Of a DNA stretch of 64,000 bases, positions 4,517 to 10,819 are shown piece after piece (the stretch's first letter is position 1; every line of letters starts with the position of its first letter). Source of the DNA: Verrucomicrobiota bacterium (GTDB lineage: Bacteria; Verrucomicrobiota; Verrucomicrobiia; Limisphaerales; CANJXF01); NCBI GenBank assembly GCA_043775015.1, contig JAYVSV010000029.1, positions 6,818 through 70,817 on the forward strand. Direction: 5' to 3'. The notes below the pieces were generated by a model. It was not told the origin of the DNA. It made no database searches and saw only the letters and a program-made list of their open reading frames with translations. Made by a program: the position numbers and the translations under genes.

Positions 4517-4604
4517 ATCCCGAATGGACGACTCGATAATAGCACGGCGTTTCAACGCCGGGTTTCGATTTGCAACGTGACAAGTCCCGAAGAGACGGCT
4601 GAAA
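4517..4604 (+). repeat. REP module copy 1 (three-hairpin unit) directly upstream of the transposase
   Basis: ATCCCGAATGGAC..AATAGCACGGCGTTTCAACGCCGGGTT..GTCCCGAAGAGACGGCTGAAA, the same unit as at 5121, 5284, 5454 and 5617. Confidence 0.85.
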
Positions 4605-4611
4605 TGCCGCC

Positions 4612-5058
4612 ATGTCCTATGTGAGTTCGTATCACCATTGCGTTTTCAGCACCAAAGAACGCCGTCCACTCATCACCGCGCCATTGAGAGAACGACTCTG
4701 GCCATTTCTCGGCGGCATCGCGCGGCAAAATAAAATGTGCGCCCTGGAAATCGGCGGCGTGGCAGATCATGTGCATATTCTTCTCTCGACGCCCGCCACC
4801 ATGCCCATCGCCAAAGCCATGCAACTTATCAAAGGCGGTTCCTCGAAATGGATTCACGAGAATTTTCCCGACCAAAGATTATTTGCGTGGCAGGAAAAAT
4901 ATGGCGCGTTCAGCGTCAGCGTTTCGCAACTCGACACCATCATCGCCTACATCAAGAAACAGCCGGAACATCATCGGAAAATGACGTTTCAGGAAGAGTT
5001 CACGGCGTTGTTGAAAAAGCACAAGATGGAATACGACGAACGTTATTTGTGGGATTAA
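4612..5058 (+). mobile_element. tnpA: IS200/IS605-superfamily Y1 HUH transposase, REP-associated (RAYT/TnpA-REP-like)
   Basis: H(C)VFSTKER, HUH motif DHVH, IKGGSSKW, FAWQ..YGAFSVS and catalytic YIxxQ. No tnpB; flanked by palindromic repeats. Confidence 0.92.
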
Positions 5059-5120: not shown

Positions 5121-5703
5121 ATCCCGAAGGGATTTCCGAAAATAGCCCGGCGTTTCAACGCCGGGTTGGAATGAAAATGAAACGAGTCCCGAAGGGACGG
5201 ATGAGAACGATCCTTTCACATCGAAAATCGGAAGGACGTTTTGGAAATAATCGGATGAATTTGATGACGTTTGTTCGTGAAAATTTCAGCCGTCCCTTCG
5301 GGACTCGACATCTTGTCGCGTGGAACCCGGCGTTCAAACGTCGGGCTATTGTCAGATGTTCCTTCGGAACGGGCATGGAAGAATTTAAATAACATGGAGC
5401 CTCGCAAAAAATGGATGGTGAAAACTCCGCGATATTCGCGAATCGATTTTTCAGTCCCGAAGGGGACGTTCCGAAAATAACCCGGCGTTCAGCGCCGGGT
5501 TGGAATGAAAATGAAACGAGTCCCGAAGGGACGGATGAGAACGATCCTTTCACATCGAAAATCGGAAGGACGTTTTGAAAACATCGGATGAATTCGATGA
5601 CGTTTGTTCGTGAAAATTTCAACCGTCCCTTCGGGACTCGACATCATGTCGCATGAAACCCGGCGTTCAAACGCCGGGCTATTGTCAGATGTTCCTTCGG
5701 AAC
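5121..5703. repeat. REP/REPIN array: four ~87-bp modules as two inverted pairs, duplicated with 333-bp period
   Basis: Modules at 5121-5206(+), 5284-5370(-), 5454-5540(+) and 5617-5703(-). Block 5121-5370 is nearly identical to 5454-5703, including the spacer. Core hairpins are GTCCCGAAGGGAC and CCCGGCGTTTCAACGCCGGG. Confidence 0.92.
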
Positions 5704-5751: not shown

Positions 5752-6879
5752 TTATTTCGCAGGTTTATTCGTTGAGGCGGAAATTTGATTTGTTTTCAAT
5801 CGCTCACTCCAGCTTTTTTCTATTTTAGCAAACTCAAGGGGAGGATTGTAGTCCGCCTTTAGTTCGTCGGAAAGTAAACGAGCCGCTCTATGTAACGCTG
5901 GTAAATTATTTCGGCTGTCGGCCAACACGCCATGAAGAAAGGATAGTTTTTGTTCTTTATCAATATTGGTATGCCCCCACACAAATTCCACATAAGCCCT
6001 CGCAAGATCTGAAGGAACATTTTGCCAATTTTTTCCGATCTCATCCATGCCAAATAAATTTGGTTTCGCCGTTTCACGCCAATTTAGAACTTTATACGGC
6101 TTGTCGAACATGTCGTTCGCATAACTTAGTTGAATGGCAAATTTCGCCTTACGTGCTTCGGATCTCAATCTGAAATTCTCATCACCCGCCCACTTGTCTA
6201 GCCTCTGATACGCGTCTCTATCTTCGGTCTGAGCTGCAAGCACTGCCATAATGAACATCGACTGTTCGTCTAGCTTTTCGAGAAGAGATCGAGCTTCAGC
6301 TAACGTGACTTGAAGTTCATCTCCTGTTTTTTGCGTCTGTTTAGAATTTTCGTCCAGCTTTTCGACCCGATCTTGAATGTCTGCTTTGCTCTTTGAAAGC
6401 AAATCGACAAATTCATTTCGGATTGGGGCAATCTGGTTTGTGATATTCTTTTGAATCAACGTGTCAGCGATCGTATCGATTCTTTCCTTTGCTTTATCTT
6501 GGACCAACGCGGATATTTCTTTTGTGGCGAACTCAGAATCAATGCGTTTTGTAACTTCCTTCCGCAAATCATTTACATCGCTTTGCAAATCTTGCCTCAA
6601 TTTCTGTCCCAAGAGTTCGAATTCAGATTTTTGTCTCGCTTGAACACGCAAACCTTCATCTCGGAGATCGGCTTTAAACTCACTGGCCGATTTATAGGAA
6701 AAATAGATTCCTATCGCAATTAATGCACCAATTATAACTACCACGAATTTATACGCTGACCGCACCCAAGAAATTTCTTTATGAGCGTGGTCAGTTAATG
6801 AAACAATTGCGTTCGACAGATCGGTTGGGCCTTCCTTGTCAGCAACATCGGTTTTGATGTCTTTACGTTTGGTACTCAA
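5752..6879 (-). CDS. Hypothetical membrane-anchored coiled-coil protein (AT-rich)
   Basis: 375-aa ORF with one TM helix (FVVVIIGALIAIGIYF) followed by a long charged helical region. TTG start; a TTGACA-N16-TAGCCT promoter-like motif lies upstream on the - strand. Confidence 0.7.
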   Translation of the reverse strand: MSTKRKDIKTDVADKEGPTDLSNAIVSLTDHAHKEISWVRSAYKFVVVIIGALIAIGIYFSYKSASEFKADLRDEGLRVQARQKSEFELLGQKLRQDLQSDVNDLRKEVTKRIDSEFATKEISALVQDKAKERIDTIADTLIQKNITNQIAPIRNEFVDLLSKSKADIQDRVEKLDENSKQTQKTGDELQVTLAEARSLLEKLDEQSMFIMAVLAAQTEDRDAYQRLDKWAGDENFRLRSEARKAKFAIQLSYANDMFDKPYKVLNWRETAKPNLFGMDEIGKNWQNVPSDLARAYVEFVWGHTNIDKEQKLSFLHGVLADSRNNLPALHRAARLLSDELKADYNPPLEFAKIEKSWSERLKTNQISASTNKPAK

Positions 6880-7027: not shown

Positions 7028-10000
7028 ATGTATTTGAAGAATTTGACCGCGCTCGGTTTCAAGTCTTTTGCGGACAAAACTTCCCTGAATTTCCAGCCCG
7101 GCGTGACCGCGATTGTCGGACCGAATGGCTGCGGCAAATCGAATGTTTCGGACGCGATTCGCTGGGTGCTCGGCGAGCAATCGGCCAAGGCGTTGCGCGG
7201 TGGCGAAATGGCGGACGTGATTTTCAACGGCACGGACGGACGCAAACCGCTCGGCATGGCGGAAGTTTCCCTGACGATTGGCGGCGTCGATGGCGAACAT
7301 CTGGTCACGGCGGGTGTCGAGGTAGCGTATGACGAAGTGACTTTGACGCGGCGCGTGTTTCGCGACGGCGGCAGCGAATATTTCATCAACAAAACGCCGT
7401 GTCGCCTCAAGGATGTGCAGCAACTTTTCATGGGCACGGGCGTCGGGCGCACGAGTTACAGCATCATGGCGCAGGGAAATATCACGCAGATTCTTTCCAG
7501 CAAACCGGATGATCGCCGGATGGTTTTCGAGGAAGCGGCGGGCATCACGAAGTTCAAGTCGCAGAAAAAAGAGGCGCTGCGCAAATTGGAAAGCACCGAC
7601 CAAAATCTTTTGCGCGTGGCGGATTTAATTCGCGAAGTGAAACGGCAGATCGGTTCGTTGCAACGGCAGGCGGGCAAAGCGAAACGTTACAAACAACTCG
7701 CGCAGGAATTGCAGCATCTCGACACGCAACTGGCGCGGCATCAGTTCGATGTTTTGCAGGGCGAAATCAACGAGCGCCAAGCGTCAGTGGAAAAATTGCG
7801 CGTGGAAATCGAGGTGTGTTCCGAAAGTGTTTTGCGCGGCGAAAATGAAATTGCGCAATTGCGCGAACGGCTTTCCGAACTGGAACAGCAGATCAATCAG
7901 ACACAGCAGCGCGGACTGGAATTGAAAAGCCAGATTGATCGGCACGAGAGCCGGATTCATTTCAACGAAGAACGTTTGCGAGAATTTGAATCGCAGAATT
8001 CCAAGGCGCTGACGGAAATCACGCAGTCAGAGGAGCGTCGTCTCGCGGCGGAACAGGAACTTGCCGTCGTGACGGAAAAATTGGCGGCGTCGCAAAGCGG
8101 GCTCGAAGAACAAAAGAAAAATCTGGAAACAAAACGCGCTGCTCTGAGCGGCGTTGAGCAGGAATTGTCCGCGAAGCAGGAAGCGATTCGCAAAGCGCAG
8201 TCAGATTTATTTGCTGCCGCGCAGCAACTCACCCGCGTGCGCAACGAGATCAACGCGCTCGACATGCAGAAGCAGGGCAATGTGATTCGCCTCGAAAAAC
8301 TTTCTTCGGAAAAAATCCAGTTGGAAGAGGAACGCACCCGCCTGGAAACGCGCTTGCATGAATTTGCCTCGAATGTTGAAGCGGAAAAACTGAGCGTGCA
8401 AACGCAACGCGGCACGGTTGAGCAACGACAAGAGCGCTTAAAGGAAATTCAAACCGAGCTGACGCAAATCACACAACGGCTTGACGACGTTCTCCGGCAA
8501 CAAGCGGAAAAACGTTCGCGCCTTAACGTTCTCGAACAACTGAACGAAGCGCACGAAGGCTTCAGTACTGGAACTTTGGCCGCATTGAAGACTGCGCAAA
8601 ATGTTTTGGGTTCGCTCGCCGATAAAATACAAGTTCCAAATGAATACGTCGTGGCGATCGAAGCCGCTCTCGGCCACAATCTTCAACTCGTTCTCACCGA
8701 ACAACCGGAATCCGCGCAGCAAATTCTCGGTGACCTGAATGCAAATAAAAAAGGTCGCGCCAGCATCGCGGCACTGGCGTTTAGTGGCACGGGCGTCTCG
8801 CCCGTGCGGATCTCCGAAACGACCGAATCTAACGTTCTTGAAACGCACGGGCGGGACGCCCGTGCCACTACTGCGCTTTCGATCATTGAAGCCGATTCTT
8901 CCATTCAGCCGTTACTCCAACAATTGCTCGGACAAACATTGATCGTTTCTGATTTGGCTGCGGCGGTTTCAGCTTTTCGCGAGAGTAACGGGGCGTTTGA
9001 TTTCGTGACGCAATCTGGTGAGTTGCTCAATCGCAACGGAATTTTCACCGGCGGAAACGCCAACAGCAACGGGTCTGGAAATGCGTCGTCCATCCTCGGA
9101 CGCAAAAACCAAATTACGGAATTGCAATCGGCAGCAGGCCAACTTCAGGAACAGGTCAACGAAATCAGCCGCAATAAAGGTGCGTTGCTCAGCGAACAAA
9201 CGGAACTGCAAGCGAGTTTGCAAGCGGCGCAAACGGAATTGCGCACACAGGAAGTGGCGATTGCAACACGCCAAGGGGAACACAACGCGCTGCAAAATTC
9301 GCAGCGTGTCTTGCATCAGAAAATCGACACGGTCGTTTACGAAATCACCAGTCTCGCGGCACAGGAGCAAGAGGGGAATCAAAAGCGCGAAACCTTGGCG
9401 GCGCGCATTGGCCATTTTGAAAACAGCGAGCGCGAATTGCAGGCGCAGGTCAACGAACTGAATGCAGCCCTCGAACAATTGCGTCAGCAGCGCGATGCGG
9501 CGAATGCGGCTCTGACCGAAACCAAAGTTTCTCTCGCGACCGAGGAACAACTTTGTTCGTCGTTCCGCAACCAGAAGCAACCGCTCGAACAACGCATTCA
9601 CGAATTGACGCACCTGGCTGAGCAGCGGCGGACTGAAATCGCGTCGTTCCTGAATCGCAAAGCGCAGGCGGAATCGGAGATCGCCGAGTCGCGTCAGAAA
9701 ATTGATTCATTGCAGCACGACCGTGAGCAAGTGAATGCGCAAGCTGCCGAACTCATCGGCCAAAAAGATGCGCAGGAAAATGAAGTCTCAACGCGCGAAG
9801 AAAACTTACGTGAACAACGCCGGCGCTTGACGGAAATCCAGCAGCAACGCGGTTCGCTGGAAGTTGAATTGGCGCAAAAGAACATGTCGGTGCAAAACTT
9901 GCGCGAAAAGATTCAGCAGAAATATCAGGTGAATCTCGACGACGTTCGCAGTGAGTGCATCACGATTACTTTCGCCGACGAAGGCGCAGCAAAAATTCAC

Positions 10001-10819
10001 ACACTCACTCCAGATGAAATGGCGGCGCACGGTGCGGCCACCGATTGGAACGCGGTCGGCGAACAAGTCGGCGCGTTGCAAAAGCGGATTGACGAAATCG
10101 GGCCGGTTAATCTGGTGGCCATCGAGGAATACGAAGAAACCGAACAGCGCCACACGTTCCTCACGACGCAACACGACGATTTGACCCAGGCGAAAACGCA
10201 GTTGATGGAAGTAATCAATCGCATCAACACGCAGACGAAGGAAATGTTCACGGAGACATTCAACAAAATCCGCGACAACTTCCGGTTGATGTTCACGGAA
10301 ATTTTTGGCGGCGGTAAAGCGGACCTCATTTTGGTAAATGAAGGCGATGTTTTGGAAAGCGGCATCGACATCGTGGCCCGTCCGCCCGGAAAACAATTGC
10401 AGACGATTTCACTTTTATCCGGCGGCGAACAAACGATGACCGCGGTCGCCCTGCTCTTCTCGATTTATCAAGTGAAGCCCAGCCCGTTTTGCGTCCTCGA
10501 CGAATTAGATGCGCCGCTCGACGAATCGAACGTCAACCGTTTCGTTAAAGTGCTGCAACGCTTTCTCGCACACTCGCAGTTCGTCATCATCACGCACAAC
10601 AAGCGCACCATCGGCATGGCTGACGTGCTCTACGGCGTGACGATGCAGGAGCATGGCGTGAGCAAAATCGTGAGCGTTAAATTTCATAAATCCGGCGAGG
10701 TGGTAACTGATCACAAACCGGTTTCGCTGGAGACGCCGACAACAGGACTGAGTGTCGAAGCCGAAGAAGATGCAATGCACAAAGCGGAGGAGACTCTGGA
10801 AATTGCAATGGCGAAGTGA
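7028..10819 (+). CDS. smc: Chromosome segregation protein SMC
   Basis: GFKSF, Walker A GPNGCGKSN, coiled coils, hinge, LSGGE signature and LDELDAPLD Walker B/D-loop. Confidence 0.98.
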   Translation: MYLKNLTALGFKSFADKTSLNFQPGVTAIVGPNGCGKSNVSDAIRWVLGEQSAKALRGGEMADVIFNGTDGRKPLGMAEVSLTIGGVDGEHLVTAGVEVAYDEVTLTRRVFRDGGSEYFINKTPCRLKDVQQLFMGTGVGRTSYSIMAQGNITQILSSKPDDRRMVFEEAAGITKFKSQKKEALRKLESTDQNLLRVADLIREVKRQIGSLQRQAGKAKRYKQLAQELQHLDTQLARHQFDVLQGEINERQASVEKLRVEIEVCSESVLRGENEIAQLRERLSELEQQINQTQQRGLELKSQIDRHESRIHFNEERLREFESQNSKALTEITQSEERRLAAEQELAVVTEKLAASQSGLEEQKKNLETKRAALSGVEQELSAKQEAIRKAQSDLFAAAQQLTRVRNEINALDMQKQGNVIRLEKLSSEKIQLEEERTRLETRLHEFASNVEAEKLSVQTQRGTVEQRQERLKEIQTELTQITQRLDDVLRQQAEKRSRLNVLEQLNEAHEGFSTGTLAALKTAQNVLGSLADKIQVPNEYVVAIEAALGHNLQLVLTEQPESAQQILGDLNANKKGRASIAALAFSGTGVSPVRISETTESNVLETHGRDARATTALSIIEADSSIQPLLQQLLGQTLIVSDLAAAVSAFRESNGAFDFVTQSGELLNRNGIFTGGNANSNGSGNASSILGRKNQITELQSAAGQLQEQVNEISRNKGALLSEQTELQASLQAAQTELRTQEVAIATRQGEHNALQNSQRVLHQKIDTVVYEITSLAAQEQEGNQKRETLAARIGHFENSERELQAQVNELNAALEQLRQQRDAANAALTETKVSLATEEQLCSSFRNQKQPLEQRIHELTHLAEQRRTEIASFLNRKAQAESEIAESRQKIDSLQHDREQVNAQAAELIGQKDAQENEVSTREENLREQRRRLTEIQQQRGSLEVELAQKNMSVQNLREKIQQKYQVNLDDVRSECITITFADEGAAKIHTLTPDEMAAHGAATDWNAVGEQVGALQKRIDEIGPVNLVAIEEYEETEQRHTFLTTQHDDLTQAKTQLMEVINRINTQTKEMFTETFNKIRDNFRLMFTEIFGGGKADLILVNEGDVLESGIDIVARPPGKQLQTISLLSGGEQTMTAVALLFSIYQVKPSPFCVLDELDAPLDESNVNRFVKVLQRFLAHSQFVIITHNKRTIGMADVLYGVTMQEHGVSKIVSVKFHKSGEVVTDHKPVSLETPTTGLSVEAEEDAMHKAEETLEIAMAK
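8782..8870. repeat. REPIN-like inverted repeat inserted in frame within the smc hinge
   Basis: TAGTGGCACGGGCGTCTCGCCCGTGCG (8782-8808) and CGCACGGGCGGGACGCCCGTGCCACTA (8844-8870) form a 26/27 inverted match, and each arm is itself palindromic. Confidence 0.88.

Follow-up and report, generated by a model that had tools for sequence, protein, structure and literature searches.

The smc gene of a Verrucomicrobiota bacterium of the order Limisphaerales carries, in frame within the part that encodes the hinge of the SMC protein, an 89-nt palindrome at positions 8782-8870 of the window (the whole 64,000-nucleotide stretch analysed, positions 6,818 to 70,817 of contig JAYVSV010000029.1 in assembly GCA_043775015.1). 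This element is very probably a non-autonomous mobile palindrome of the repetitive extragenic palindrome (REP) type, built like a REP doublet forming hairpin (REPIN), which landed in a variable linker of the hinge, would be translated with smc and may owe its mobility to a transposase resembling the REP-associated tyrosine transposases (RAYTs). It has the anatomy of an inverted REP doublet and belongs to a family of copies, here called family A, every one of which in this genome lies inside a gene; the doublet is absent from SMC orthologues, and copies elsewhere are present in some congeners and missing from others.

7028..10819, + strand: smc gene, 1263 aa, host of the element (open reading frame; Pfam SMC_N and SMC_hinge)
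8782..8870, no strand: REP inverted doublet (REPIN-like, family A), 89 nt (arm pairing, palindrome pattern, RNA fold, family copies)
8782..8808, + strand: left arm, with head TAGTGG (8782-8787) and hairpin CACGGGCG-TCT-CGCCCGTG (8788-8806)
8809..8843, + strand: variable inter-arm spacer, its 3' end GAAACG like that of other family-A copies
8844..8870, - strand: right arm, an inverted left arm, with hairpin CACGGGCG-GGA-CGCCCGTG (8846-8864) and tail CCACTA (8865-8870)
8783..8869, + strand: 29 element-encoded codons, SMC S586-T614, between hinge strand SIAAL and ALSIIEAD

The two arms of the doublet, 27 nt each and 35 nt apart, pair at 26 of 27 positions (96%), and the sole mismatch falls in the hairpin loop (TCT against TCC). 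Both follow one design, TAGTGG plus CACGGGCG-NNN-CGCCCGTG, which gives each arm an 8-bp stem and a 3-nt loop. Two matches to the 21-nt palindrome pattern lie in the window, where shuffling leads one to expect 0.02, and two or more were reached in 0 of 100 shuffles. An earlier sequence-only reading of this DNA, made by a model without database searches, had described an 89-bp element with near-perfect 27-bp inverted arms, a GTGG head and a palindrome with a 3-nt loop in each arm, and a difference between the arms at a single position; pairing and pattern match agree with it exactly. The predicted RNA fold of the 89 nt is one long hairpin of -64.8 kcal/mol (z -11.9, equalled by 0 of 200 shuffles), and the predicted DNA fold reaches -39.7 kcal/mol (z -11.4). 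The element is stop-free in two of the three frames on either strand; at the left ends of the family the third frame opens with TAG.

The source assembly (hereafter G000, relatives being numbered likewise) comprises 4.39 Mb in 206 contigs, is 92.8% complete with 53% G+C, and holds the window on its contig C29. Its smc product matches SMC_N (4.6e-63, residues 2-1213) and SMC_hinge (1.4e-21, residues 525-647) in Pfam, and these matches together with a structural model support an architecture of a Walker-type head split between the N- and C-terminal parts, long coiled coils and a central hinge. The open reading frame is stop-free and 91% identical to the G001 orthologue across 1263 aa. Since PF06470 (SMC_hinge) has one match in the whole assembly, making this the only smc gene found, SMC is presumably still functional. 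In the reading frame of smc the element follows F585 and reads SGTGVSPVRISETTESNVLETHGRDARAT (S586-T614), so that the in-frame position at about codons 585-614 and the peptide given by the sequence-only reading are borne out, the translation being identical. The predicted peptides that span the junctions are AALAFSGTGVSPVR and DARATTALSIIEADSSIQPLLQQLLGQTLIVSDLAAAVSAFR (tryptic form).

An AlphaFold2 model of the hinge (SMC residues 458-757, 39 orthologous rows) has a mean predicted local distance difference test score (pLDDT) of 81.1. The insert occupies model residues 129-157; pLDDT is below 50 at residues 132-145 and 149-152, and the adjoining 10-residue blocks average 73-92. Foldseek aligns the model with the solved SMC hinges 5h69, 4rsj, 6wg6 and 1gxl at E values from 2.7e-16 (5h69) to 2e-11, and in the sequence alignment to 5h69 the insert coincides with that hinge's own linker of some 20 residues. 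Placed in this way, as the sequence-only reading had suggested doing, the insert is a low-confidence loop in an otherwise confident hinge fold. It is probably a 29-residue disordered surface loop of SMC (SGTGVSPV...THGRDARAT) that the fold may well tolerate, the model being a prediction and no proof of tolerance.

SMC was found in all 31 genomes searched. In every orthologue of the hinge alignment (23 of the 27 loci matching the hinge query, the partial or very distant L047, L049, L051 and L053 being excluded) the stretch between GRASIAAL and AL-IIEAD is a linker that varies and is poorly conserved. The congeners G002 and G005 have a plain 16-residue linker (QSLDFRL...NAT) with no palindrome; in the source genome 29 element-coded residues replace these 16, a net gain of 13 aa over G002 and G005. 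Family-A arms (at most 2 mismatches) were found in 0 of 109 SMC loci of other genomes, 29 from relatives and 80 public. The sequence-only reading had expected an indel of about 29 aa and a new loop on the hinge. The palindrome is indeed absent from orthologues and the loop is encoded by the element, but the net gain is the smaller figure and the variable linker pre-exists in every orthologue, so what was added is better described as an expanded or overwritten linker.

The same linker holds other palindromes in other genomes. G001 has a different, nested pair there, the outer, GTAG-headed family of which counts 65 arm sites in G001 and is absent from G000, G002 and G011 (reversed control 0). 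A third family occupies the linker of G004 and of G011, which belongs to another family of the order; its arm sites number 60 in G004, 30 in G000, 5 in G011, 1 in G001 and 0 in G002 (reversed control 0). In three congeners one and the same hinge linker carries three different multi-copy families of palindromes, and G009, an unpublished genome, has a hairpin in its SMC linker too. Among public genomes, whose nearest named SMC loci come from metagenome-assembled genomes (MAGs) that bear the labels Limisphaerales, Verrucomicrobiota or Verrucomicrobia subdivision 3, only 4 of the 63 loci (of 80) from which a linker could be extracted by pattern show a perfect inverted repeat of at least 9 bp in it. 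Most genera in this set share a conserved linker of about 41 residues, and in the more distant Limisphaerales loci L125-L194 the stretch G(D/E)M(S/A)PG of that linker is, in many genera, read from a short DNA palindrome of type GGCGACATGTCGCC, which may be coincidence or a fixed palindrome of great age.

The element in smc is one of a family. Allowing up to 2 mismatches, the source genome contains 20 sites of the palindrome (reversed control 0), and an nhmmer model of the arm recovers 25 arms at E <=0.0052, among 37 rows to E 10, at 14 loci on 11 contigs, so the motif, whose copies the sequence-only reading had left to be counted, is not unique. The loci comprise 12 doublets (62-95 nt, one truncated by a contig end), one single REP and one degenerate doublet. 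Contigs end within family-A arms at G000 C132:1 and at the end of G007 C398. These copy numbers are lower bounds, because the arms break short-read assemblies. The constant design is TAGTGG-hairpin-(A/C)GTTYC, a variable centre and GRAAC(G/T)-hairpin-CCACTA, with spacers in the other copies that are 12-45 nt long and differ in sequence. The GTGG foot is present in 23 of 23 aligned arms of the source genome, one of which has CAGTGG in place of TAGTGG. In 40 arms from G000 and relatives, admitted only with no more than 2 mismatches in each half-stem, pairing holds at 319 of 320 stem cells, and compensatory double changes occur at 4 of the 8 pairs.

All 14 loci lie within long open frames that read through the element stop-free, none being extragenic, and in all 12 host genes Pfam domains of the host are found on both sides of the element.

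Hosts of family A in the source genome: SMC, FeoB, DnaE, N6_N4 DNA methylase, 2OG-Fe(II)-oxygenase-family protein, ValS (two copies)
Hosts of family A, continued: AspS, alpha-2-macroglobulin, IspG/GcpE, NAD-dependent DNA ligase LigA, aldehyde dehydrogenase, PheT

Open frames of at least 300 aa contain 25 of the 25 arms as against 73% of 3000 random 25-nt sites. Other repeat families of this genome stand in sharp contrast, the corresponding figures being 8/63, 2/34, 9/86 and 8/64, with two intermediate families at 21/58 and 22/44. The left end is read as SGTGV(S/P)PV in 9 of 12 cases and as VARAS in 3 of 12, a preference that is not significant (one-sided binomial about 0.07), and by eye no consistent flanking motif is apparent beyond a loose CGG preceding TAGTGG.

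Some of these genes and repeats have further features of their own. The ValS-like gene (G000 C132:3-2231) encodes further Arg/Ser/Pro/Gly-rich stretches, GRASPRAESS...SRGRSPH, which by eye resemble translated palindromes of other families, and the alpha-2-macroglobulin-like gene (G000 C151:13389-18731) likewise has, besides family A, the palindrome-like stretch TRSASPQSKKSGTRGTRPS. Other repeat families of the genome include the GTAG-headed GTAGGGCGCGTCACTCCGTGCGCGCC (58 sites), GCGGACAGGAATGTCCGC (63) and GTAGCGGCGGGCGTC (64), and an A+T-rich 22-mer, GGGTGTGATTAAAAGTGGGTGA (86 sites), none with a copy in the window; in two families between a third and a half of the sites fall within long open frames.

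Among the 31 genomes, family A (0-1 mismatch) occurs in six, with 23 arms in G000, 15 in G007, 7 each in G004 and G027, 4 in G001 and 2 in G008; it was not found in G002, G003 or G005. Of 10 loci inspected in relatives, 9 lie in open frames of 150 aa or more that run through the element (these lengths are themselves lower bounds, since loci were truncated at 3 kb or where contigs end); the other is a single 31-nt hairpin in G001. The FeoB copy occupies the identical position in both G000 and G007. At one spot in LigA there is a short loop in G002 and a different, GTAG-headed doublet in G007. The AspS copy, 72 nt long and encoding 24 aa, is lacking in 5 of 5 congeners, where the protein matches have clean breakpoints and contiguous flanks; at the DNA level the junction can be aligned in three of the five, and there the whole doublet, heads and spacer included, is missing.

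A candidate for the mobilising enzyme lies within one of the hosts. PF01797 (Y1_Tnp) has nine matches in the source genome, all above the family cut-off, one of them inside dnaE (1460 aa, G000 C13:12482-16861, minus strand), the sole DNA_pol3_alpha gene found in the assembly. There an in-frame insert of 254 aa is made up of a REP doublet and a single REP (C13:15071), both of family A, with a RAYT-like Y1 segment of about 245 aa between them. The segment has an HVH motif and a YIEENP tyrosine motif and scores 32 bits for Y1_Tnp against a cut-off of 23; its best NCBIfam match is REP_Tyr_transpos (NF047646) at 68.8 bits, with IS200 at 22 bits. The whole insert is absent from G002, G004 and G005. 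In G007 (87% complete) dnaE has the same REP at the same place and the contig ends there, and in G001 the insert site holds unrelated palindromes.

Similar arrangements are found in public proteins, of which 2224 longer than 396 aa match the dnaE-nested segment at E <=1e-10. Among the 120 of these matches listed, precomputed Pfam assignments name as hosts DnaE, UDPGP-family proteins, MetH, DinG-like helicases, AlaS, IspG and DUF1156, and some come from contigs of up to 4 Mb. In 37 DnaE-type rows (36 public plus G000) the insert falls at about 345-357 or about 860-866 in the numbering of the insert-free G002 protein. Within the source genome, an AlaS-like gene (1222 aa, G000 C1:29535-33200, minus strand) and a PriA-like gene (1002 aa, G000 C2:3538-6543, plus strand) each contain an in-frame, stop-free RAYT-like segment, at about aa 302-544 and 219-437 respectively, flanked by REP hairpins of its own. 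In G008 a further RAYT-like segment occupies this PriA site, and among relatives such segments are found in DnaE, in PriA and, in three genomes, in a UDPGP-family protein some 1440 aa long. Inteins are selfish enzyme-coding inserts that lie in frame in essential genes such as DnaE, recur at the same sites and are distributed patchily among close relatives. The nested transposases resemble them in placement, sites and patchiness; neither a splicing domain nor splice-junction residues were seen, and neither was searched for, and the insert is presumably retained in the mature protein.

In the window itself, 2 kb upstream of smc, lies a 148-aa IS200-like Y1 transposase frame (4612-5058, + strand; PF01797, 96 bits). 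A pair of 71-nt inverted repeats with 77% complementarity, at 4535-4605 and 5283-5353, encloses it; CCCGGCGTTTCAACGCCGGG hairpins occur within these repeats, and the frame is not flanked by family A.

These observations suggest the following course of events. Two inverted, GTGG-headed REP hairpins around a variable spacer would have inserted as a unit into the variable hinge linker of SMC, partly overwriting it. The element would then be transcribed and translated with smc, because it is stop-free in the frame used and its net length keeps the frame. Arrival as a mobile doublet is well in keeping with the empty AspS site, and family A would survive only in permissive loops of protein-coding genes, where selection most plausibly spares copies that preserve the frame, lack stops and are compatible with a loop. 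Repeated hits on one loop may stem from such selection alone or in part from a targeting of palindromes already there. A RAYT-like HUH/Y1 tyrosine transposase, of which a copy is nested in dnaE, would mobilise the family as single-stranded DNA. By analogy with IS200/IS605 elements, which are described as targeting the lagging-strand template (PMC6006769), the dnaE-nested enzyme might conceivably act on single-stranded hairpins at the replication fork.

Several points weigh against this reading. The insertion in smc is not clean, since the roughly 16 native linker residues of the palindrome-free congeners are unrecognisable, and translation of the insert is a prediction from the open frame. The AspS junction shows no target-site duplication and has 4-5 extra bases outside the TAGTGG...CCACTA ends. 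The excess of family A in genes over random sites is modest (0.73^14, about 0.012, on the 300-aa criterion) and is not significant at 150 aa, a length reached by the frames around 91% of random sites. With 25 arms the family is small beside the REP families so far described, which as a rule are far larger. The NCBIfam score of the dnaE-nested segment, 68.8, lies below the curated cut-off of 80. Finally, no co-occurrence of family A with a close homologue of the dnaE-nested transposase was found among the 30 relatives: none of these has a homologue more than 59% identical, in G004, itself a carrier of family A, no transposase more than 45% identical was found, and in the carriers G027 and G007 none at E 1e-40.

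The doublet in smc might instead be the product of two solo REP hairpins that inserted separately around a remnant of the native linker, so that the spacer, 35-39 nt depending on where it is measured, would be partly native smc sequence. At 39 nt, measured after the hairpins, the spacer is among the family's longest, most copies having 12-20 nt, and it contains ACGACCGAATCT, where the native linker of G002 has ACGACCGATCT in the same frame (TTE against TTD); G002 also has CCAC exactly where the right hairpin adjoins CCACTA, and a solo REP does exist in the family, in dnaE. However, GAAACG and TCCGAAAC are motifs typical of family-A spacers, which leaves only about 9 nt of the G002 match as independent, few enough to be chance, and the AspS copy arrived as a whole doublet with heads and spacer, nothing of which is seen in the congeners. 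I consider separate insertion of two hairpins fairly unlikely.

A second possibility is that the element is kept because it is useful, having been exapted either as a hairpin that regulates the smc mRNA through pausing, stability or processing, or as a loop that tunes the hinge. The maintenance of the stem by compensatory changes, the very stable predicted RNA hairpin and the presence of palindromes in the same linker of several congeners would all fit. Upkeep of the stem is, however, equally expected from recognition by a transposase or from intra-hairpin repair; 11 further genes of unrelated function contain the same element, and the closest palindrome-free congeners do without it. On the + strand no terminator-like or promoter-like site was found in 8500-9150, and Rfam has no family match for the element (top score 17 bits against a gathering threshold of 43). 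The strong mRNA hairpin proposed by the sequence-only reading is backed by the folding energy, but as a folding prediction only, and any effect on the smc mRNA would be putative. Exaptation seems improbable as the reason for the element's presence.

It is very improbable that the element is a classical MITE (miniature inverted-repeat transposable element) of an insertion sequence with a DDE transposase, having terminal inverted repeats and a TA target duplication. The termini TAGTGG...CCACTA do begin and end with TA, and the length is 2 modulo 3 in 8 of the 11 copies measured, as a 2-nt duplication with an in-frame insert would give. Yet the same length class follows if both symmetric ends are read in the same frame, each arm is by itself a GTGG-headed hairpin of REP design, and the only transposase-like gene flanked by the arms is of the Y1/HUH type. 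The empty AspS site in the congeners has no TA, and the insert there consists of the element plus the further bases noted above; a TA target duplication, considered at first, was dropped after this comparison.

Logan contigs from 4 sediment-metagenome runs carry 8300-8869 and 8844-9400 without differences, but all four belong to one study, possibly the source of the assembly, and are not independent support. Per run, one contig holds the left flank, the left arm, the unique spacer and the right arm, and another the right arm with the right flank. The contigs break at the right arm, where the summed depth rises 8-10 fold, both as expected because the right arm is a repeat. For the smc stretch no RNA run turned up. 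A chimeric join at a repeat in this MAG, or an smc pseudogene, can be given almost no credence: the assembly is fragmented and incomplete and no single listed Logan contig spans both flanks, but overlapping contigs cover the two sides at similar depths (129 against 117; 39 against 36), the frame and the orthologous sequence continue across the element, and the gene is the only one in the assembly with an SMC_hinge, which weighs against a pseudogene.

The doublet in smc has precedents. Its description by the sequence-only reading as an exception to REPs being extragenic by definition does not hold, since intragenic GTAG REPs, a good many of which fall in genes for replication and repair, were already described from several species, with the highest number in Opitutus terrae, by Di Nocera, De Gregorio and Rocco (2013; PMC3733652). 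According to that report one O. terrae family is GTGG-headed, over half of the inserts are dimers encoding 20-30 aa, and the hosts include DNA ligase, DnaE-type polymerases and tRNA synthetases. SMC has no occurrence in its main text, and the host list in its Additional file 3 may include it. Compared by description, family A is like the O. terrae GTAG-type REPs in its verrucomicrobial host, its GTGG head variant and its dimers in open reading frames, and unlike the families of that report, described as mostly intergenic, in being intragenic at all 14 loci. The Rickettsia palindromic elements (RPEs) are described in a 2024 review of MITEs (PMC10969869) as frequent in-frame palindromic inserts in Rickettsia housekeeping genes, thought to be compatible with the fold. 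Family A likewise inserts in frame in unrelated housekeeping genes and leaves the open reading frame intact. By that description RPEs are about 150 bp long, belong to an obligate intracellular alphaproteobacterium, have no known transposase, and had about half of the first-described set in open reading frames, whereas family A consists of 62-95 bp REP doublets in a free-living verrucomicrobium, with a candidate RAYT flanked by the same repeat.

The smc insert is thus a further case of the intragenic REP dimers already described from O. terrae and, as RPEs, from Rickettsia. In the REPIN/RAYT systems of Pseudomonas and enterobacteria, as presented by Bertels and Rainey (PMC3337134, PMC3116915), extragenic doublets number in the hundreds and RAYTs are free-standing single-copy genes. 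The family-A unit is like a REPIN in having two inverted REPs and a spacer that form a hairpin and in its link to a REP-flanked Y1/HUH tyrosine transposase; unlike those systems it numbers about a dozen doublets, all intragenic, and its RAYT-like unit is nested in frame in dnaE. The literature searched, which included few subscription journals, yielded no description of a wholly intragenic REP family, of three sister species with three families in one hinge linker, of RAYT-like transposases nested in frame in essential genes, or of intragenic REPINs. As far as those papers go, the wholly intragenic family and the transposases nested in frame in essential genes seem to be undescribed.

From these elements one may put forward, tentatively and with considerable doubt, that the Limisphaerales lineage hosts REP/RAYT systems adapted to life inside coding sequence, with transposases nested in essential genes as internal domains, the dnaE-nested one being carried to the fork, and REP doublets seeding loops elsewhere. 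If this were true, the nested hosts would be DnaE, AlaS and PriA here and, among public proteins, DnaE (at two recurrent sites), MetH, UDPGP-family proteins, DinG-like helicases and IspG. The dnaE-nested transposase would be brought to the replication fork, where REP hairpins extrude, and the transposases would occupy an intein-like niche without splicing. Should the nested transposases be real internal domains, they would provide a testable link between REP mobilisation and the replication fork.

In practical terms, marker-gene alignments and trees are distorted by such inserts, metagenome contigs break at them, and polymerases end up with transposase labels. Permissive loops hit repeatedly by different families in sister species give a steady supply of lineage-specific indels in marker proteins. 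Colonisation of coding sequence by palindromes is not limited to the reduced genomes of Rickettsia: REP-type selfish DNA can colonise core genes (smc, dnaE, ligA and four tRNA synthetase genes including alaS) of a free-living bacterium, and the 89-base palindrome in the smc of this soil or sediment verrucomicrobium shows how selfish DNA adds loops to core proteins.

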